From Escherichia phage Ec_Makalu_002, in sequence record MN709127.1: a stretch of 64,000 bases of DNA. One strand, given 5' to 3'. The notes below the pieces were generated by a model. The model was not told where the DNA came from, did no database searches, and was given only the letters and a program-made list of their open reading frames with translations. Shown here piece by piece: positions 4,480-27,374 of the stretch. Made by a program: the position numbers and the translations under genes. Every line of letters begins with the position of its first letter. Positions within the stretch are counted from its first letter, which is position 1.

Positions 4480-6380
4480 CAAAGCAAAAGATTACACAAA
4501 TTCCTGATATTTTTAATGCTGCTACATTCGATGAAATTAAAAGCGCATTAACCGACTGGATGAGAAACCAGGAAGAATTTAAAGATTTTGATTTTAATGG
4601 TGCTGGTATTAACGTATTGATGGACTTGCTCGCATATAACACTCTGTATATTCAGCAATTCGCCAACGCCGCGCTATATGAATCTTTTATCAGAACGGCA
4701 ATTAAGCGTAGTTCAGTTGTTCAAGCCGCGCAAGATTTAGGATATTTGCCAGCGAGTAAAACTAGTGCATCGACTACAATTATGTTGCATGTTTCCCATC
4801 CACGAAATCCGGCAAGTATTCGAATCCCACGAGGGACTAAATTTATTGCAAGTGTGGATCGCCAGACTTCTTACCCATTTGTTACTACAGAAGACGTTGT
4901 GAGCGTTTTAGGTTCAAATGGTTTATATACGCCTATGCTTAAAGTCGCACAAGGTCGTATTGTTCGTACAGAAATGTTATTTGATCCGAAGAAACAAATT
5001 CTGATCCGTGACCCTGATATTGACCGCGCTCAGGTTAAATTGTGGGTGGACGGTGCTGAATGGAAAGACTGGACACGAGAAAGTATTGTTAATGCAACTG
5101 GCGCAAGCAATATTTTCTATATGCGTGAAACCGTAGACGGACATACAGAAATTTTCTTTGGTGAAGGTGAATCAACCTTATCTGCGGCTGGCGGGGCGCT
5201 GGAAGCAAATTATATTGGTGGACTTAAGCCGTCAACTGGCGCTAATATTGTTATCGAATATATCAGCACTAAGGGCGCGGAAGCAAACGGTTCAGTTAAT
5301 TTCACATACGCGGATACCCTTGCATCTATCTCTATTGTTAAAATTATTGAGAATCCGACAAATGATCGTGATTATGTCGGTGCAGATGGTGGTGGTGATC
5401 CTGAATCAATCGAACGTATCCGTGAACTTGCTCCGGTAATGCGTGAATCTCAGCGTCGTTGTGTAACTGCTTCCGACTACGAGGCTTTTGTTTCTAGCCG
5501 TTTTGGTAGTATTGTTCAGGCTGTACAATGTTTCACCGACCGAGAAAAACCGGGTTATGCTTTTGTTGCTGTTAAGCCTAAATCTGGCTTGCGTTTGACA
5601 ACTGTTCAAAAAGAAGATATGCGGGATTATCTGGCAAAATATAACCTTGCCCCTATCACACCGAGCATCATTGACCCTAACTATCTGTATATTAAACAGA
5701 ATATTAAAGTTTCCTATTCAATCAATGACTTGTCAGAATCAGAGCAGTGGTTGCGCGGTGCGGTTATTGATCAGATTGATGCATATTATACCGACGAAGT
5801 GGAAATTTTTAACCAGACCTTTAGTAAGTCTAAAATGCTTGCGCGTATTGACAAAGCTGATGTATCTGTGATAGGTTCTAGTGCAGAAATCGAGATGGTG
5901 CGAGAGATCGACAACTTCTATAAAGCACCGATGGCTGGAATCAAGTTTTTAAACCAGTATAAGAGCGGAATCAAGTCTAGTTCATTCAACTTCGAAAAGG
6001 ACGACAAGCAATATCCGATCCATTATGTAAGTACAGAAATGAACAAAGAATCCGGTTTAGCTAAATTGCTGGTTGGACCTTTCCCTGTTGGTTCTGCAAT
6101 CGCTTTACCGCACTATTCCGGCACTGATTTTGATAAAGAGGTTATCGACGGTGCGGACCTATACTTTGAGGTTGGAGAGGTTCAGCATTATGACGACCTT
6201 ATTTCATGGGATCTGGGTAAACTGAATATCAATAGCGATCGCTTTACTGGTTCATATATTGAGTTGACAGCTAAACCGATTGCTGATAACATCTTTACTA
6301 AAGACGGTTCTTTGATCGTGTTTGAAAACGATCTCCGTCCTCAGTACACAACTATTAGTCTGGAGGCAATTGCTCAATGA
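4476..6380 (+). CDS. 6: Baseplate wedge protein gp6
   Basis: 634 aa; synteny and size (T4 gp6 ~660 aa). Confidence 0.8.
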
Positions 6381-15360: not shown

Positions 15361-16761
15361 ATGTCAAACAATACTATTAACCATGTAAAAGACGATGCTC
15401 AATACGTCAAGTTTAACCCTGTAAATGATTGGCCTCAAAGCATTACCAACGTACAAGCGGCTTTAGCCGCTATTAATGGCTTTGCCGTAAATGGATTACC
15501 GGACGCTACGGAAGATACAGCCGGGATCGCTGCAATCGCAACTCAGGAAGAAGTAAACGACGGGGTAGTAGACAATAAGATCGTGACTCCAAAAACACTG
15601 GCTGTTAAAATGTCACGTCCAGATGCTACAAAAGAAGTAAAAGGCATTACCCGATTTGCCACAATGGAAGAATCGCTGCAAGAGAGCAACGAGAACATGG
15701 CAATCGGTCCAGACACACTAAACCATTACTTCACCACTAAAAAGGCGTCAGAGAGCGTTCAGGGGACTATTAAGATATGTTCTCTTGAGGCGGCAAAGAT
15801 TGGCAGTGATGACACAATGGCAGTAACACCGAAAAAGATGCACACTGCCATTGCACAGATTGTACCGGGATTAATTCCAGATCAAAACACAGCAACCGAA
15901 AGCGCACAGGGTTTAGTTCAGTTAGCAACCAGTGCGCAGGTTTTACAAGGCCAGATTCGAGAAGGTTTTGCAATTAGTCCTTATGCATTTGCAAATGCTC
16001 GCGCCAATGAGAATCAGGCGGGTACTGTTAAGATCGCCAGTCAGTCACAGATGAATGCTGGTTCAGATGATACTGTAGTTGTTTCTGCTAAGAAGTTTGC
16101 AAGCACTAAGGCAACAACGTCTCAATACGGTATTGTTAAACTACGAGACACCGTAGGAAGTGAGGCTAATGCTGCACTATCAGCAAATGCTAAGGTTCTT
16201 CCTAGCACTGGCGGTACGGTAAGCGGAAACGTCTATAAAGGTTCAAACTCAGACGGCAACCAGTTTGTTACTAAAAATGAATTAGCGAATCACGCAATGC
16301 CAATTGGTGGTATTATCCTTTCTGGATTCAATGCCGACCGAGGTGACTTTCTGATCTGTAATGGTCGTTCACTGAATAAAAATCAATATCCGCAATTATT
16401 TTCTGCGATTGGTTATACCTTTGGTGGTTCAGGTGACAATTTTAACATTCCTGATATGCGCGGTTTAGTTGCTCGTGGTTGCGATCATGGAAGAAACCTT
16501 GATCCAGGTCGTCGATTTGGTTCTTATCAAGAAGACGCAATGCAGAGAATTACTGGTAAATTCCCTGTAGCTGACCGCTGGCGCGGTTGGTATGGTGGCG
16601 CATTTACTGCACAGCGCGGTCAATGGAGCACGAACTATAAAAATGGTGGGGGTGATGATTGGGGTTCTACTGTTAACTTTGACTCAGGAAGATCCGTAAG
16701 AACGGCTAACGAGACTCGCGTCAAGAGTCTGGCATTAAACTATATCATAAGGGTGCGCTAA
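15361..16761 (+). CDS. 12: Short tail fiber protein gp12
   Basis: 466 aa; N-terminus (MSNNTI.HV....YVKF) and C-terminal LNYIIRVR resemble T4 gp12 as recalled. Confidence 0.85.
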   Translation: MSNNTINHVKDDAQYVKFNPVNDWPQSITNVQAALAAINGFAVNGLPDATEDTAGIAAIATQEEVNDGVVDNKIVTPKTLAVKMSRPDATKEVKGITRFATMEESLQESNENMAIGPDTLNHYFTTKKASESVQGTIKICSLEAAKIGSDDTMAVTPKKMHTAIAQIVPGLIPDQNTATESAQGLVQLATSAQVLQGQIREGFAISPYAFANARANENQAGTVKIASQSQMNAGSDDTVVVSAKKFASTKATTSQYGIVKLRDTVGSEANAALSANAKVLPSTGGTVSGNVYKGSNSDGNQFVTKNELANHAMPIGGIILSGFNADRGDFLICNGRSLNKNQYPQLFSAIGYTFGGSGDNFNIPDMRGLVARGCDHGRNLDPGRRFGSYQEDAMQRITGKFPVADRWRGWYGGAFTAQRGQWSTNYKNGGGDDWGSTVNFDSGRSVRTANETRVKSLALNYIIRVR

Positions 16762-18530
16762 TGATTGAACAATTAAACATCCACGAGATCCCACACGTTG
16801 ACGGTGTACCAAGCGAAGGACAGCACCGTATTAATTGGATCAAGAATGGCGAATGTTTAAGCGCAGCAACGACACAGACTGGCAATGACGGGACGCTTAA
16901 CCGCGCCCCGGTTGCAATTCAAGAAAACGTTGCACGCGTAAACGAAAACGCAAAATCAACCGTCGCTAAAGTTAACGAGGTTGTAACGGCGGTTAACGAT
17001 ATTAAAACAACTTTAGGGGTAATTTCTGACGGAAGTATCATTGATGTGGTTAACCAGACTGTCGCAAAAGTTGAATCCGTCGAAGAGAACTTAGGAGAAA
17101 CAGCAAGAACTCTGCAAACAACGGTAGACGCTGTATCAGAACTTAACATCAAGATTGGTGATCGCCCCGCTGCCGATCCGAGCACAAGAACAATCTATGA
17201 TGACATTTCTTTCATCAAACAAGAAATGGGTTCTTATCCTAACTTTAATATCAATGGTTCCCCTGATGCTGGCAGTTCCGGTTCTGGCATCAAATACCGA
17301 GTTATTCAGAATACCGCAGCATTAAATGACCACGGTCGCCGAATCGTTCAGCTTGAAAACGACTGGCAAGATTCTGACGTAGGCGAGTTAACAAGACAAG
17401 TTAACAAAATGCGCAGTGAGATCGGCGACACGTCTCTTGCCACACAAGAAAATGTGTATGTTCGTCTCCGCACCAACGCAAGAAACATTGCTAACCTATC
17501 AAACGAAGTTCTAGAAGTCAAGAAAGCAATTTTGTTTGATTCAATCCCTGATATCGGGACTAAAGTCACTACGCTGGGCACTAATTATGAACTTCTAAAC
17601 AATGATGTTAATGGTGTAGATTCCGGTATTCGTCCTCGTCTTCTGGCTGTCGAGAATAAGATCGGAACGCCTCAATCGGCAGGAAGCATTGATTATCGAT
17701 TAACCAACACAGAGCGAGAATTTTTAGATCTTAAACAGGTTGTTGGTGTAAGCGGTGCTGACGGTTTGCGCGGTGAAGTTGTTCGACTTTCCAATGAGAT
17801 TGGCACTGACAGCGATCGACATACTCTAGCCGGACGTATTAAAGTTGTAGAAAACACTCAGGGTCGGTTAGAAGCAAGCGTACAGGACATGGAACAGCTT
17901 GTAGGTGATCGCGAATCAGGTTTGACCGCTGGCGTTATTAAACTATCAAGTGATATCTATGGCGATGATGGTTCAGAAGATCCATTTACTCAGAAAGGCG
18001 TGATTAAAATCGTCAAAGAGCTACAAACATCTAACGGAAACAAAGTAGATGATGTACCTGATGACGGTTTCCATTATCTTCGTAAACGCGGAGAATGGGT
18101 GCAAGTTGCATATGCTGCTGGAGCATTTAAAAATACCGCAGATATTACGGTTGAACTTGACGAACAGGATGTTTATAAACAGATTCCACTTAACGACATG
18201 GCGGCAGAAGTTAATGCTCGTCAAATGGTTAAGAGCGAATCTCTTGTTACGGTTAACGACAAAGGCTTATTCCGTTGTGATTTCCGTTGTTCTGTAAATG
18301 CGGCACATAACGCTACTTTCGTAGTCGGTATTGCTAAAAATGGTCTGATTGTACATGAGGTACGAAATGGTCATTATGGAGCTGATGATTTAATTAGCTA
18401 TTCTACCAGTGCTTTCCTAAATATTGAAAAGGGCGACCGGATCGATATTCGCATTAAGGGCGTATCCGAAGAAGCATTAGCGCAACAGCTACAAATTAAA
18501 GAGTTCCTCTTTGGAATTTCTCCGGTATAA
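16761..18530 (+). CDS. wac: Fibritin (whisker) with foldon-like segment and C-terminal extension
   Basis: 589 aa; N-terminus resembles T4 fibritin; foldon-like DDGFHYLRKRGEWVQV followed by ~140 extra residues. Confidence 0.8.
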   Translation: MIEQLNIHEIPHVDGVPSEGQHRINWIKNGECLSAATTQTGNDGTLNRAPVAIQENVARVNENAKSTVAKVNEVVTAVNDIKTTLGVISDGSIIDVVNQTVAKVESVEENLGETARTLQTTVDAVSELNIKIGDRPAADPSTRTIYDDISFIKQEMGSYPNFNINGSPDAGSSGSGIKYRVIQNTAALNDHGRRIVQLENDWQDSDVGELTRQVNKMRSEIGDTSLATQENVYVRLRTNARNIANLSNEVLEVKKAILFDSIPDIGTKVTTLGTNYELLNNDVNGVDSGIRPRLLAVENKIGTPQSAGSIDYRLTNTEREFLDLKQVVGVSGADGLRGEVVRLSNEIGTDSDRHTLAGRIKVVENTQGRLEASVQDMEQLVGDRESGLTAGVIKLSSDIYGDDGSEDPFTQKGVIKIVKELQTSNGNKVDDVPDDGFHYLRKRGEWVQVAYAAGAFKNTADITVELDEQDVYKQIPLNDMAAEVNARQMVKSESLVTVNDKGLFRCDFRCSVNAAHNATFVVGIAKNGLIVHEVRNGHYGADDLISYSTSAFLNIEKGDRIDIRIKGVSEEALAQQLQIKEFLFGISPV

Positions 18531-18536
18531 GAAATT

Positions 18537-18560
18537 AAAGGGGCGTTAAGCCCCTTTTCC
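18537..18560 (+). terminator. Rho-independent terminator after wac
   Basis: Hairpin AAAGGGGCGTTAAGCCCC followed by TTTT. Confidence 0.6.
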
Positions 18561-18576
18561 GTTTATAGGTGATATT

Positions 18577-19509
18577 ATGTCAGGATATGTAACCAATAAC
18601 CCAAGAGAATTAAAAGACGCTATTCTGCGTCGTTTAGGCGCACCAGTAATTAACGTAGAAGTCACAGAAGACCAGATTTACGATTGTATTCAGAGAGCAC
18701 TAGAACTCTATGGGGAATATCATTTCGATGGTGTGAATAAAGGATATAAAGTATTTCGTGTTAGTGCAGAGCAAGCGCAACATGGGGTATTTGATTTAAG
18801 CGATTCTGGAGTATTTGCAGTAACTAAAATAATTCGAACAAACGTAGGTAGCGCGGCTACGATGGATGGCACTGCCGTTTATCCGTGGTTTACCGACTTT
18901 CTGTTGGGTTTAGCTGGTGTAAATGGCGGTTTAGGATCTGGATGTAGTAAATTTTATGGTCCAAATGCAATGGGCGGTGATCTAGGATATTTCGAACAGC
19001 TTATGAGCTATCGAGCCACTATGCAAAATATGCTTAATCCACTGCCAGACTATTGGTATAATAGCGCAAACGGACAACTTAAGATTACAGGAAACTTCCG
19101 AGAAGGTGATCTCATTGTTGTTGAATTATATGTTAAAAGCTATGTAGACGTTCCTGATATGATCGGCGCGGTTGCTGGTTATGCTCATGCTGGAGGATGT
19201 TCTACCGCTGGCGGGATTAGCGCCGTTTATGATAATCCAACTGCTGGTTTAAGCGGGATTGTTGCTGGCATGGGACCGATCAGTGAGAACAAGCAGGGCG
19301 CATATAATAACCGTTGGGTTAAAGACATGGCAACCGCTTTCACTAAGGAGGTGTGGGGGTCCATCATGGCTAAACATCAAGGTCTGCAATTACCAGGTGG
19401 TGTCACTGTTGATGGTATCCGAATCATTGAAGAAGCACGCGCCGACATTGAGAAATTGCGACAAGAACTACTTGACTTAGATCCACCATTTGGTATACTA
19501 ATGATATAA
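18577..19509 (+). CDS. 13: Neck protein gp13
   Basis: 310 aa; synteny and size (T4 gp13 309 aa). Confidence 0.8.
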
Positions 19510-19518
19510 AATAAATAT

Positions 19519-19540
19519 GGGTATATGATAACATATACCC
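19519..19540 (+). other. Perfect 9-bp stem-loop after gene 13
   Basis: GGGTATATG-ATAA-CATATACCC; no T-run. Confidence 0.4.
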
Positions 19541-19562
19541 TATGTAATATCGGAGATACTAA

Positions 19563-20378
19563 ATGGAACATTATGTATACAAAATAACCAACAAAATAAA
19601 CGATAAGATTTATGTCGGTGTTCGGTCTTGTGATGGATTAGCCGAAGACGATACAAAATACATGGGAAGTGGAAAAATAATAAAACAAGCTATTAAACAT
19701 CATGGATTAGAAAATTTCACCAAAGAGATATTGTCAAAATTTGATAGCAGAGAAGATGCGGATAAAGAAGAGTCAAGGATTGTTACGGTTGATTTTGTCA
19801 AGAGAGAAGACACGTATAATATAGCAGAAGGCGGTGGAACTGTTTGTATGTGGAAGGTTTCTGATGAAGCAAAGATAGAAGAAATGAGAAAAAAGATCTC
19901 AGAGAAAAATACTGGAAGAAAACATACTAAAGATACAAGACAAAAGATGTCCGCATCTCAAAAGGGAAGGAAGCATACGGAAGAAACAAAAGAAAAGATG
20001 AGGCAAAATAACTTAGGAAAAGTTATTGCAGAAGAGACAAAAGAAAAGTTAAGGATGATTAATTTAGGAAAAAGACACACAGAAGAAACGCGAAGAAAAA
20101 TGTCTGATTCACATAAGGGTCTATCCTTATCCGATGAGGTGAAGGATAAGATAAGACAAAAACACACAGGACGTGTTTTTACTAAAGAATGGAGAGAAAG
20201 AATTAGCAAATCTAGAATCGGAATAACTAGCACTAGATCAAGAAGAATAAGCATCAACGGAGTGATATACAATAGCATAGGAGAAGCTGTTATAAAATTA
20301 AACGTTAAGAGAGGATTGATTGTCGGAAGACTTAAATCAAATACCGATAAAAACAAAAATTATTTCTTCGTAGATTAA
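19563..20378 (+). CDS. GIY-YIG homing endonuclease (Seg-like) with NUMOD3 repeats
   Basis: N-terminal YVYKITNKINDKIYVG...YMGSG (GIY-YIG-like); repeated HTEETKEKM/RRKMSDSHKG NUMOD3-like repeats. Confidence 0.7.
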   Translation: MEHYVYKITNKINDKIYVGVRSCDGLAEDDTKYMGSGKIIKQAIKHHGLENFTKEILSKFDSREDADKEESRIVTVDFVKREDTYNIAEGGGTVCMWKVSDEAKIEEMRKKISEKNTGRKHTKDTRQKMSASQKGRKHTEETKEKMRQNNLGKVIAEETKEKLRMINLGKRHTEETRRKMSDSHKGLSLSDEVKDKIRQKHTGRVFTKEWRERISKSRIGITSTRSRRISINGVIYNSIGEAVIKLNVKRGLIVGRLKSNTDKNKNYFFVD

Positions 20379-20384
20379 TAAATT

Positions 20385-20400
20385 GGGGGAGTATTCCCCC
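20385..20400 (+). other. Stem-loop between endonuclease gene and gene 14
   Basis: GGGGGAGTATTCCCCC. Confidence 0.35.
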
Positions 20401-20414
20401 ATTTGGAGTAACAT

Positions 20415-21155
20415 ATGTTTAACAACACTCTTTTTGCTCGCCTTGAATCGCAAAAGGATTATGAGAATACACGACAAACAGAGATTCTCAATCCTTATGT
20501 GAACTTTCACAAATATACAAATACTCAGACGTTAGCCGACGTTATGGTCGCCGAAGCTATTCAGATGCGAGGTGTAGAATTATATTACATCCCTCGTGAA
20601 TTTGTCAAACCAGATATGATCTTTGGTGAGGATGTTCAAAGCAAATTTACTAAAGCATGGAAATTTGCGGCTTATATTAACTCATTTGATGGGTATGAAG
20701 GAGCGGGTAATTTCTTCTCTAGTTTCGGGTATCAAGCTAATGATGAATTAACCATAACCATAAATCCAAATTTATTCAAACATCAAGTAGATAACCAAGA
20801 GCCTAAATCCGGTGATTTATTTTACATTCCTATGAGCAATGATTTATTTGAAATCTCATATGTAGAGCCATATCAGCCGTTTTTTCAGGCTGGCAAAAAT
20901 GCCATGCGTAAAATTATTGCAGAGAAATTCGTGTATAGCGGTGAGGAATTGCGACCAGAATTACAACGCAATGAGGGAATTAATGTTGATGAGTTTGCGG
21001 ATCTGGATCTTGCACCGATCACTAATCTGGACGGGTTAACAGATATCAACTTAGATCAGTACAAAGAAGATAAGCAATTCAGAAGCGAAGGACAAGATTT
21101 TATTGACCCATTTGACCCAATTAATGGCACTGGTTCACCTTTTGCTAATTTTTGA
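20415..21155 (+). CDS. 14: Neck protein gp14
   Basis: 246 aa; synteny and size (T4 gp14 256 aa). Confidence 0.8.
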
Positions 21156-21181
21156 TAAATACTCATAAACAAGGGGGTCAA

Positions 21182-22015
21182 ATGTTCGGTTGGCACTATA
21201 ATTCGTCAATTAGAAGGTATATTGTATTGCTGGGTAATTTATTTTCCGGCGTACAAATTAAAAGGGTGCGTAGTGACGGTGAGCGTTTTATTAAAGTTCC
21301 TATCACCTACGCAAAGAAAGAAAAATTCATGATGAGTCTGGACAAATATAACAATATCTTAAGCGAGGAAGACGTCGCAAAGGTAGAAACTATTTTACCT
21401 CGTATGTGTCTTTCTTTGATTGATATGACATACGCCCAGAACTTTAAAACCAATATTGCAAATAAGACAGTACCAAAATATACGGCTGATGGAATCAGGA
21501 GCGTAACACAATATAACCCCGTACCATATAAGTTTACTTTCGAGTTAGGGATTTATACGCGTAACGAAGATGATATGTTTCAGATAATTGAACAGATTCT
21601 TCCTTACTTCCAGCCTCATTTTAACTGTAAGATTAAAGAACTACACGGTAATGATGTATGGATTGATCGAGATATTCAGGTCACAATTAGTTCTATTACT
21701 CCAGATGAACAGGTAGGCGAAGATAAGTTTTCTCGTCGTCGTCTTGAGTGGACCATTATGTTTGAGTTCATCGGGTTTATCTATCCTCCAGCCACCGACG
21801 TTAAGGGGGAAATCAGAACGATTTATCTTGATTTTCATGCTAATTCTCGTGAATTAAATCCTAGCGGTAATTTTGAATCTGTGGATCATGAAGTTGTTAA
21901 ACGTGATGTTGAGCAAGAAGAATGGGACGGAACTATCAAAGAATCATATTCTAGTGATATTCCAATACCAGTTGCACCGACTCCACCGGGTCCACGTATT
22001 GTAAGAGAATTTTAA
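21182..22015 (+). CDS. 15: Tail sheath stabiliser / tail completion protein gp15
   Basis: ORF track starts at TTG 21152 inside gene 14; ATG 21182 has AGGGGG site and gives ~277 aa (T4 gp15 272 aa). Confidence 0.8.
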   Translation: MFGWHYNSSIRRYIVLLGNLFSGVQIKRVRSDGERFIKVPITYAKKEKFMMSLDKYNNILSEEDVAKVETILPRMCLSLIDMTYAQNFKTNIANKTVPKYTADGIRSVTQYNPVPYKFTFELGIYTRNEDDMFQIIEQILPYFQPHFNCKIKELHGNDVWIDRDIQVTISSITPDEQVGEDKFSRRRLEWTIMFEFIGFIYPPATDVKGEIRTIYLDFHANSRELNPSGNFESVDHEVVKRDVEQEEWDGTIKESYSSDIPIPVAPTPPGPRIVREF

Positions 22016-22028
22016 GAGGTAATTTATT

Positions 22029-25342
<3,314 letters not shown>

Positions 25343-25373
25343 CGATAATGCATAAAAAGATGAGGAAATTCTA

Positions 25374-27374
25374 ATGACTCTATTATCACCGGGTTTCGAA
25401 ACGAAAGAAACTACTCTCTCCACTACCATTGTGCAATCTGCGACTGGTCGCGCGGCACTGGTAGGTAAATTCCAATGGGGTCCAGCTTTCCAGATTATTC
25501 AAGTAACTAATGAAGTTGAATTAGTTAATAAATTTGGTCAGCCGGATAATAACACCGCAGACTATTTCATGAGCGGGGCTAACTTCCTCCAGTACGGTAA
25601 TGATCTGCGTGTTGTTCGTGTATTGAATAAAGAAAAAGCGAAAAACGCAACCGCACTGGCTGGTAACATCGAGTTTGAAATCACAAACGAAGGTTCAAAC
25701 TATGAAGTAGGCGATACCATCAAGATTAAACATAACCGTCAAGATATTGAAACGGCAGGTAAAGTAACTAAAGTTGATGGTGATGGTAAAGTTAAGGGCG
25801 TATTTATCCCAACTGGTAAAATTATCGCTCACGCTAAAGCAATCGGTGTATATCCAGAACTTGATGGCGGTTGGACGGCAGAGTTCACTTCTTCGTCAGG
25901 TAACGGTAGTGCGGCGCTGTCAGTAACTAAAATTGTTACTGATTCCGGTCTTCTGTTAACGGATCTGGAAACTTCCCGCGCCAATATCACAAATCAAACT
26001 TTCTTGACTAAACTCCAGAAGTATGATATGCCAGCGGTAAGCGCGATCTATGCTGGTGAGATTGGCAACTCGCTGGAAGTTGAAATTCTGGCACGTAGTG
26101 CGTTTAAGAACACTGCACCGGATCTGACCATGTATCCTTATGGTGGCGAGCGCACCGCAGCACGCAACCTGATTCCATATGCACCGCAGAATGATAATCA
26201 ATATGCATTTATTGTTCGTCGCGATGGTGTTGTGGTAGAATCCTATGTACTGTCTACTCTGAAAGGGGATAAAGACGTATACGGCAATTCTATCTACATG
26301 GACGACTTCTTTGCTCGTGGTTCTAGCCAGTACATCTATGCAACCGCTCAAGGGTGGGTAGATGGTTTCAGTGGTATTATCTCTCTTGCTGGTGGTGTTT
26401 CTGCTAACGAGGCAACGACTGGTGGAGTTGGTGCTGATCCGTTCATCGGTGCGATGATGCAAGGTTGGGATCTGTTTGCTGAACGTGAATCTATTCACGT
26501 AAACCTTCTGATCGCTGGTGCATGTGCTGGCGAAGGCGATGCGTTCTCTACCGTACAGAAACATGCTGTTTCCATCGGTGATGAGCGTCAGGATTGCTTA
26601 GTAATGGTTTCTCCGCCGCGTAGCACTGTTGTTAATATTCCGGTGACTACTGCAATTGATAATCTGATTGCATGGCGCGAAGGTTCAGGAAACTATAATG
26701 AAAACAACATGAACATTAATACCACTTACGCGGTTATTGATGGTAACTACAAATATCAGTATGACAAATACAACGACGTAAACCGTTGGGTTCCGTTGGC
26801 TGCTGATATTGCTGGTTTGTGCGCTCGTACTGATGCTGTATCCCAGCCGTGGATGAGTCCGGCAGGTTATAACCGTGGTCAGATCATGAACGTGGTTAAA
26901 CTGGCAATTGAGCCTCGCAAGGCGCACCGCGATCGTCTGTATCAGGCCGCAATTAACCCGGTGATCGGTGCTGGTGGTGAAGGGTTTATCCTGATGGGTG
27001 ATAAAACCGCTACGACTGTTCCCAGCCCGTTTGACCGCATTAACGTTCGTCGTCTGTTTAACATGCTGAAAAAGAATATCGGCGATTCAAGCAAATACAA
27101 ACTGTTTGAAAACAACGATAACTTTACTCGCGCTTCTTTCCGTATGGAGGTTTCGCAATATCTCAGCACGATTCGCTCTCTGGGCGGCATTTATGACTTC
27201 CGAGTACAATGCGACACCACGAATAACACGCCGGATGTAATTGATCGTAACGAATTTGTTGCTAGTATGTTCATCAAACCAGCAAAATCGATCAACTATA
27301 TCATGCTCAATTTCACTGCTGTTGCAACGGGTTCTGATTTTGACGAAATTATCGGTCCAGCTAACCAGGCATAA
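25374..27374 (+). CDS. 18: Tail sheath protein gp18
   Basis: 666 aa; synteny and size (T4 gp18 659 aa). Confidence 0.9.
   Translation: MTLLSPGFETKETTLSTTIVQSATGRAALVGKFQWGPAFQIIQVTNEVELVNKFGQPDNNTADYFMSGANFLQYGNDLRVVRVLNKEKAKNATALAGNIEFEITNEGSNYEVGDTIKIKHNRQDIETAGKVTKVDGDGKVKGVFIPTGKIIAHAKAIGVYPELDGGWTAEFTSSSGNGSAALSVTKIVTDSGLLLTDLETSRANITNQTFLTKLQKYDMPAVSAIYAGEIGNSLEVEILARSAFKNTAPDLTMYPYGGERTAARNLIPYAPQNDNQYAFIVRRDGVVVESYVLSTLKGDKDVYGNSIYMDDFFARGSSQYIYATAQGWVDGFSGIISLAGGVSANEATTGGVGADPFIGAMMQGWDLFAERESIHVNLLIAGACAGEGDAFSTVQKHAVSIGDERQDCLVMVSPPRSTVVNIPVTTAIDNLIAWREGSGNYNENNMNINTTYAVIDGNYKYQYDKYNDVNRWVPLAADIAGLCARTDAVSQPWMSPAGYNRGQIMNVVKLAIEPRKAHRDRLYQAAINPVIGAGGEGFILMGDKTATTVPSPFDRINVRRLFNMLKKNIGDSSKYKLFENNDNFTRASFRMEVSQYLSTIRSLGGIYDFRVQCDTTNNTPDVIDRNEFVASMFIKPAKSINYIMLNFTAVATGSDFDEIIGPANQA

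Follow-up and report, generated by a model that had tools for sequence, protein, structure and literature searches.

Why do the neck genes 13 and 14, which lie next to each other in RB49, stand 905 bp apart in this phage, and what does the reading frame between them do? The window analyzed here is the whole stretch of 64,000 nt, taken from a coliphage of the genus Krischvirus (RB49-like, Straboviridae). Its neck and packaging block is encoded entirely on the + strand, in the order wac (16761-18530), gene 13, an extra reading frame, gene 14, gene 15, gene 16 and gene 17. The upstream host gene of the extra frame is gene 13 (18577-19509, +), the neck protein and head-tail adaptor, which matches PHROG_211 (head-tail adaptor Ad2, E=4e-40) and is collinear with gene 13 of RB49; the downstream host gene is gene 14 (20415-21155, +), the neck protein for head closure (Pfam T4_neck-protein, E=9e-102). 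A sequence-only reading had placed a gene of 271 aa between these two and had named it a homing endonuclease gene (HEG). We found this frame at 19563-20378 on the + strand (271 aa plus stop). A Shine-Dalgarno sequence GGAG (19552-19555, +) can be read off the sequence 7 nt before its ATG, and a ribosome-binding site at this GGAG is already annotated in phage Ec_Makalu_001.

The gap between the two neck genes measures 905 bp in the window versus 36 bp in RB49. Aligning the junction with RB49 and eight other phages that carry no HEG gave a net insertion of 869 bp with precise boundaries, located directly 3' of the gene 13 stop and 5' of the hairpin GGGGGAGTATTCCCCC. The HEG sits between complete reading frames of genes 13 and 14 and has the same orientation as its neighbours. 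An Rfam scan of positions 18000-26000 (E<=1) gave no match, so that neither a group I intron nor any other RNA family is detected around the HEG, which is consequently a free-standing gene.

The HEG had also been described as bracketed by two stem-loops. Both hairpins fold as proposed, but only the left one belongs to the insert. The left hairpin (19519-19540, +; 9-bp stem and 4-nt loop, -12.5 kcal/mol, z=-2.9) lies between the stop codon of gene 13 and the ribosome-binding site of the HEG, and is absent at HEG-less junctions. The right hairpin (20385-20400, +; 5-7-bp stem, -12.9 kcal/mol, z=-2.2) is identical in RB49 and the eight other HEG-less phages; it is therefore native to the 13/14 intergenic region, lies outside the insert and marks its right boundary. 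A mobile element bracketed by both hairpins can be ruled out for this reason. A masking of the ribosome-binding site by the left hairpin can be ruled out as well, since the hairpin ends 11 nt before the GGAG. We observed no T-run after either hairpin on the + strand, and the terminator scan calls both of them terminator-like on the - strand only. As a separate observation, the loop of the left hairpin (19528-19531) reads either ATAA or its reverse complement TTAT among 13 HEG-carrying copies, with an invariant stem, and the loop of the right hairpin (20391-20394) reads GTAT, or its reverse complement ATAC in KFS-EC, L023 and L024, again with an unchanged stem. These alternative forms look like hairpin-loop inversions by template switching.

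Domain architecture of the encoded protein

The reading frame encodes a Seg-like GIY-YIG homing endonuclease, as its family matches and its domain architecture show. The protein matches PHROG_314 ('homing endonuclease', E=1e-58) and the Pfam families NUMOD3 (E=2e-12), I-TevI_DNA-bd (PF20987, E=3e-6) and SegE_GIY-YIG (E=2e-5), the last of these with 25.2 bits, i.e. 0.2 bits above the cutoff of 25. Searching the PDB with the single sequence (phmmer) returned a weak match to 1i3j alone (E=0.17), and a family profile was needed: the profile built from 36 homologues matched both the catalytic domain of I-TevI (1ln0, E=2e-11) and its DNA-binding domain (1i3j, E=4e-6). The identity to SegA of phage T4 is 36% over 148 aa (E=1e-19).

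Three parts can be distinguished along the protein. The GIY-YIG catalytic domain (aa 1-92; 19563-19838, +), supported by the 1ln0 profile match and a Foldseek match to 1mk0, is followed by seven tandem NUMOD3-like helix repeats of 17 aa (aa 101-222; 19863-20228, +) and by a C-terminal I-TevI-type DNA-binding domain with a helix-turn-helix (aa 223-271; 20229-20375, +), for which PF20987, the 1i3j profile match and the top Foldseek match agree. The GIY-YIG motifs YVY (Y6) and YVG (Y17, G19) are in register with I-TevI. Residues Y6, Y17, G19, E70 and N86 are invariant in the 36 homologues and align with Y6, Y17, G19, E75 and N90 of I-TevI, so that the catalytic Glu (E70, corresponding to E75) and the conserved Asn (N86, corresponding to N90) are both kept. 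The AlphaFold2 model has a mean pLDDT of 90.8 and consists of an N-terminal three-stranded sheet (strands 2-10, 16-23 and 52-60) with helices, a middle part of seven helices spaced by 17 residues (aa 102-218) and a C-terminal beta-beta-helix-turn-helix. Its best Foldseek matches in the PDB are the I-TevI domains 1i3j and 1mk0/1ln0, followed by I-HmuI and UvrC; for 1mk0 we obtained a TM(target) of 0.63 with a probability of 1.00. The GIY-YIG-like N-terminus and the NUMOD3-like DNA-binding repeats of the sequence-only reading are thus both borne out, the former by the SegE_GIY-YIG, PHROG_314, 1ln0 and fold matches together with the SegA identity, and the latter by the NUMOD3 match and the seven 17-aa helices of the model. 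Tandem Repeats Finder detected no DNA-level repeat beneath the seven NUMOD3 units, so no recent repeat expansion has taken place.

One segment of I-TevI has no counterpart in the window protein. The segment KRWKRH, which contains Arg27 of I-TevI, the conserved Arg on the first helix of GIY-YIG nucleases, appears in the alignment as an insertion relative to the HEG protein and its family. T4 SegA shows the same gap, with the motif YMGSG in its place, and as the window protein shares both the gap and this motif, the Arg27-less arrangement may be a feature of the Seg subtype.

Distribution of the gene and the recoded end of gene 13

Comparing the 13/14 junction among relatives, the check that the sequence-only reading had proposed, we found the window-type HEG in 6 of about 57 Krischvirus-level records, namely Ec_Makalu_001, KFS-EC (two records), MIZ4, MIZ5 and PHB13. 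At least 33 of the listed Krischvirus-level records have a clean junction, seen as a span of 1710 bp without insert, and here the two genes are adjacent as in RB49. The gene is therefore far from being present at this site in all relatives, and an unequal HEG content among the closest relatives of T4 is textbook knowledge (PMC2993671). All 10 public contigs that encode the protein have it between gp13 and gp14, and in these 10 contigs an intein in gp17 and a second HEG between genes 14 and 15 vary independently of the 13/14 HEG. All 13 copies of the HEG that we examined are intact and full length. They segregate at 31 synonymous versus 5 nonsynonymous sites, giving a pN/pS of 0.03-0.05 for haplotypes that are about 14% apart at synonymous sites, and the gene is under strong purifying selection. 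The copy in the window has one private change, A71S, at a variable position adjoining E70. The gene is already annotated in Ec_Makalu_001 as 'putative Seg-like homing endonuclease, GIY-YIG family'; in our literature search, no publication dealing with an endonuclease at this junction came up.

Next to the insert we observed a short tract of gene 13 whose sequence goes with the presence of the HEG. In sliding windows comparing five HEG-carrying with nine HEG-less phages, the divergence between the groups reached 20-32% at 19438-19509 with about 1% within each group, while elsewhere the divergence between groups equalled that within them. Counting fixed differences between 13 HEG-carrying and 9 HEG-less haplotypes from wac to gene 16 (979 variable sites), we found them confined to 19471-19500, with the exception of three alignment-boundary columns at 20377-20381. 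Compared to RB49, 10 of the last 14 codons of gene 13 are changed, 8 of them synonymously and six of them in succession (P-P-F-G-I-L), versus 18 of 297 codons elsewhere in the gene (binomial P~5e-10). From 19471 onward the tract is identical in all 13 HEG-carrying copies, and just outside it both flanks are mosaic. Such a pattern is to be expected where a short segment has to be kept together with the HEG. The 13 recoded codons at the end of gene 13 (19471-19509, +) may thus form the left edge of the mobile cassette and are the best candidate for the altered target site; on the most economical reading of these alignments, the tract would be an uncleavable version of the target of the enzyme. 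As a side observation, an I-TevI-like CNNNG motif (CTCCG) occurs in the HEG-less gene 13 tail and is gone from the recoded one; Seg enzymes are not known to use this motif. A blastn search with the tract also recovered it in G37-3 and G5211, with 100% identity up to 19505, and JSE, whose 13/14 junction is HEG-less, has the first six of its changes. An exclusive association of the recoded tract with the window-type HEG is thereby ruled out.

The recoding also creates a putative sigma-70-like promoter (19472-19499, +), consisting of TTGACT and TATACT at a distance of 16 nt with an upstream TGn. Sites of such quality occur only five times on the + strand of the window, and the HEG-less allele has AATTAT and CATCCT at the same positions, i.e. 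no such hexamers. At the level of 9 of 12 matching positions, 7 sigma-70-like sites were found versus 10.5 expected, chance matches being common in AT-rich phage DNA. Of the six synonymous changes in the tract, three (19485, 19488 and 19500) are not needed for the promoter hexamers. In T4, the endonuclease genes segA, segG, mobC and mobD have their promoters inside the 3' part of the preceding gene; these promoters are of the middle or late type, and none of the endonuclease-specific promoters of T4 is of the early type (PMC2988022). The exact T4-type late promoter TATAAATA does not occur between 12015 and 25335 in the window, which leaves a dedicated late promoter for the HEG unsupported; late expression would come by read-through within the late operon.

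Further endonuclease genes in the neck module and a probable intein in the terminase gene

The 13/14 junction of related phages is also occupied by other endonucleases. The E26-type HEG encodes a protein of 311 aa that is 37% identical to the window protein and matches SegE_GIY-YIG (E=2e-8); in the phage collection, no proteins are closer to it than the window-type copies. In E26 the whole spacer is replaced, gene 13 at its tail and gene 14 at its start show a recoding of their own, and a separate promoter-like site is present (TTTACA and TATAAT, 17 nt apart). The G37-3-type HEG, found in G37-3, G5211 and Brandy, encodes 214 aa with 28% identity to the window protein. Its protein has a weak Pfam match to the C-terminal I-TevI_DNA-bd family, and its N-terminus is similar by BLASTP to the other two junction HEGs. 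In G37-3 and G5211 the insertion point is the native hairpin's loop, 17 bp downstream of that in the window, and the inserted gene overlaps gene 14; the order of the allele is recoded tail, native stop with half of the hairpin, and then the different HEG. The Brandy gene, which is frameshifted and accompanied by a native RB49-type gene 13 tail, is apparently decaying. In this copy (L032, 1122-1785) the frame breaks after about 21 codons, and only an ORF of 141 aa is annotated.

Homologues of the G37-3-type endonuclease reach beyond the genus. Dhakavirus MX01 (L031, 1498-2124) has a 60%-identical homologue between genes 13 and 14, from which it follows that this junction is occupied by a HEG outside Krischvirus too; other homologues with 56-60% identity are annotated adjoining a neck gene in other coliphages, and 14 records of Klebsiella phages also match the G37-3-type endonuclease. 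A fourth Seg-like HEG, of 251 aa, lies between genes 14 and 15 in JSE (L030, 3370-4125), MIZ4 (L005, 5620-6375), G2494 (L017, 4751-5506) and two metagenomic contigs (L020 and L024, both 4634-5389). Its protein matches I-TevI_DNA-bd (E=1e-7) and weakly SegE_GIY-YIG, and the gene is absent from the window; gene 15 of G2494, which adjoins this HEG, is annotated as two pieces. With three different Seg-like HEGs at 13/14, a fourth at 14/15 and the occupied junction of MX01, the suspicion of a hotspot in the neck region is strengthened, and the neck module is a recurrent landing site for Seg-like HEGs.

Apart from the 13/14 junction, we noticed that the large terminase gene (gene 17, 22523-25339) encodes 938 aa in the window versus 607 aa in RB49. 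The difference is an insert of 331 aa at about 23015-24007 (aa 165-495), which interrupts the Walker A motif (SRQLGK / TTAV). With Ala as its first residue, His-Asn at its end before a Thr, and a LAGLIDADG_3 match, the insert resembles an intein that contains a homing endonuclease. Ec_Makalu_003, ELT3 and FL04 have this gene 17 of 2817 nt too, annotated there as 'intein-containing', and this form of the gene is absent from RB49 and Ec_Makalu_001. The intein and the 13/14 HEG occur together in no isolate record among those listed; both are found in the metagenomic contigs L018 and L019. Around the Walker B region of the intein-bearing gp17 (about 24275-24320, aa 585-600) amino-acid changes are clustered compared to DECAFIQNWTDCFL in RB49, and outside this cluster gp17 is 98% identical to that of RB49. 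The gene 17 products on L020 (6731 onward) and L026 (5961 onward) have 829 aa and 579 aa, and not 607 or 938, which suggests that the terminase gene has additional variants, with insertions or truncations.

Proposed homing at the junction and its alternatives

Taken together, we consider it probable (roughly 70%) that the 869-bp insertion at 13/14 is a functional free-standing Seg-like HEG that spreads by homing, a mechanism which we propose by analogy with T4 SegA-SegG and I-TevI (PMC2988022, PMC2993671). In a mixed infection, the enzyme would bind the endonuclease-less 13/14 junction via its NUMOD3 repeats and the C-terminal helix-turn-helix and would cut close by, the final ~40 bp of gene 13 being the most probable place. 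The break would then be repaired from the HEG-carrying genome, so that the HEG and flanking neck-gene markers would be copied into the recipient. Such localized marker exclusion is known to be caused by Seg enzymes (PMC2988022), and the mosaic flanks described above would fit it without being specific to it. Resistance of the HEG-carrying allele itself would probably come from the 39 recoded bp at the end of gene 13 (19471-19509), and the sigma-70-like promoter formed there could allow expression of the HEG without late read-through. The cleavage itself, the place of the target, the immunity and the working of the promoter are predictions.

The position of the target is the part of this proposal for which a different reading deserves the most weight. 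Since some T4 Seg enzymes such as SegG cut hundreds of bp from their own gene (cited in PMC2988022), the target may lie outside the linked tract; like SegG and SegF, an active enzyme could cleave remotely, whether in one of the two neck genes (13 or 14) or farther away. Because the tract is separable from the window-type HEG, as seen in G37-3, G5211 and JSE, it could then be hitch-hiking donor sequence, or only a promoter. The extended -10 and -35 elements formed by the tract, its presence upstream of a different HEG in G37-3 and G5211 and in part in the HEG-less JSE, and the native tail beside the G37-3-type HEG of Brandy are all in keeping with such a distant target, as is the far cleavage by SegG (PMC2988022). 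Against it stands that the 979 variable sites from wac to gene 16 hold no other fixed difference, so that a genome with the HEG would have no protective polymorphism there, and that half of the six synonymous changes (19485, 19488 and 19500) are unneeded for the promoter hexamers. We therefore regard a distant target as unlikely, although clearly ahead of the other alternatives to a cut in the gene 13 tail.

Purifying selection alone cannot separate homing from another function, and a GIY-YIG protein that no longer homes could have been retained for a benefit to the phage, for instance competition with relatives, regulation or recombination stimulation, or because its deletion is harmful, its patchy distribution being produced by ordinary recombination. 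Mosaic flanks would arise anyway from the heavy recombination of T4-like phages, and SegB is reported to aid immune evasion by amplifying anti-defence loci (PMC13096335). We nevertheless think that such domestication is improbable: all family-conserved residues of the catalytic core are intact, the exact position of the cassette does not vary among the copies, the presence of three different HEGs at a single junction speaks for repeated invasion, and a recoded tract that is specific to the allele and borders the insert is what one would expect of an active site-specific nuclease. Least of all do we believe in a decaying, inactive remnant. Decay does occur at this junction, as the frameshifted HEG of Brandy illustrates, and the Arg27 segment is absent from the window protein; but 13 of 13 copies are full length with a pN/pS of 0.03-0.05, the model is confident (pLDDT 90.8), and T4 SegA has the same Arg27-less arrangement. 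SegA itself is reported to be an active endonuclease (Sharma et al. 1992).

Within the homing reading, the allele of G37-3 and G5211 allows a more tentative suggestion, which we offer as possible but doubtful. The 39-bp tail might be a module of immunity plus promoter that can move without the endonuclease: it would block the window-type enzyme and at the same time provide an early-type promoter to any HEG located downstream. In that case this allele would be the trace of a cut made by the window-type enzyme, after which repair copied the resistant tail alone. If this were true, three lineages of endonucleases would be competing naturally for the 13/14 junction.

The general importance of the gene is modest, as it is one more uncharacterized member of a thoroughly studied class and near-identical genes are annotated already. 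Its value lies in the natural alleles available for a test of intronless homing: HEG-carrying and HEG-less junctions, two other junction HEGs, the G37-3 tail without the window-type HEG and the frameshift of Brandy, in a phage that presumably has unmodified cytosine DNA. For phage cocktails of Krischvirus, a biased inheritance of neck-module alleles is predicted when strains co-infect.

Among the known systems, the HEG is most similar to T4 SegA and SegB-SegG, with which it shares a GIY-YIG domain at the N-terminus, belonging to the 'Y-x-G ... Y-M-G-S-G' subtype, and NUMOD3 repeats after it. Like the Seg genes it is free-standing, intergenic, oriented as its neighbours and unevenly distributed among close relatives, and as in segA and segG a candidate promoter lies in the 3' end of the upstream gene (PMC2988022). 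In contrast to the Seg genes of T4 it is found at the 13/14 neck junction and in Krischvirus; its candidate promoter is of the sigma-70 or early type, whereas the endonuclease-specific promoters of T4 are middle or late. The alignment with SegA leaves the seven NUMOD3-like repeats and the I-TevI-type C-terminal domain uncovered. With I-TevI the protein has in common a GIY-YIG catalytic domain, a long linker and a C-terminal minor-groove/helix-turn-helix DNA-binding domain, and both I-TevI domains are its best solved-structure matches by profile and by fold; the bipartite site of I-TevI would also be similar in length to the linked tract of ~40 bp. Unlike I-TevI, the window HEG is not intron-encoded, and its protein has neither the Arg27-containing KRWKRH segment nor a zinc finger, its linker being formed by the NUMOD3 repeats. 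The E26-type and G37-3-type junction HEGs, finally, occupy the same intergenic site in the same orientation, but differ from the window HEG in their insertion points.
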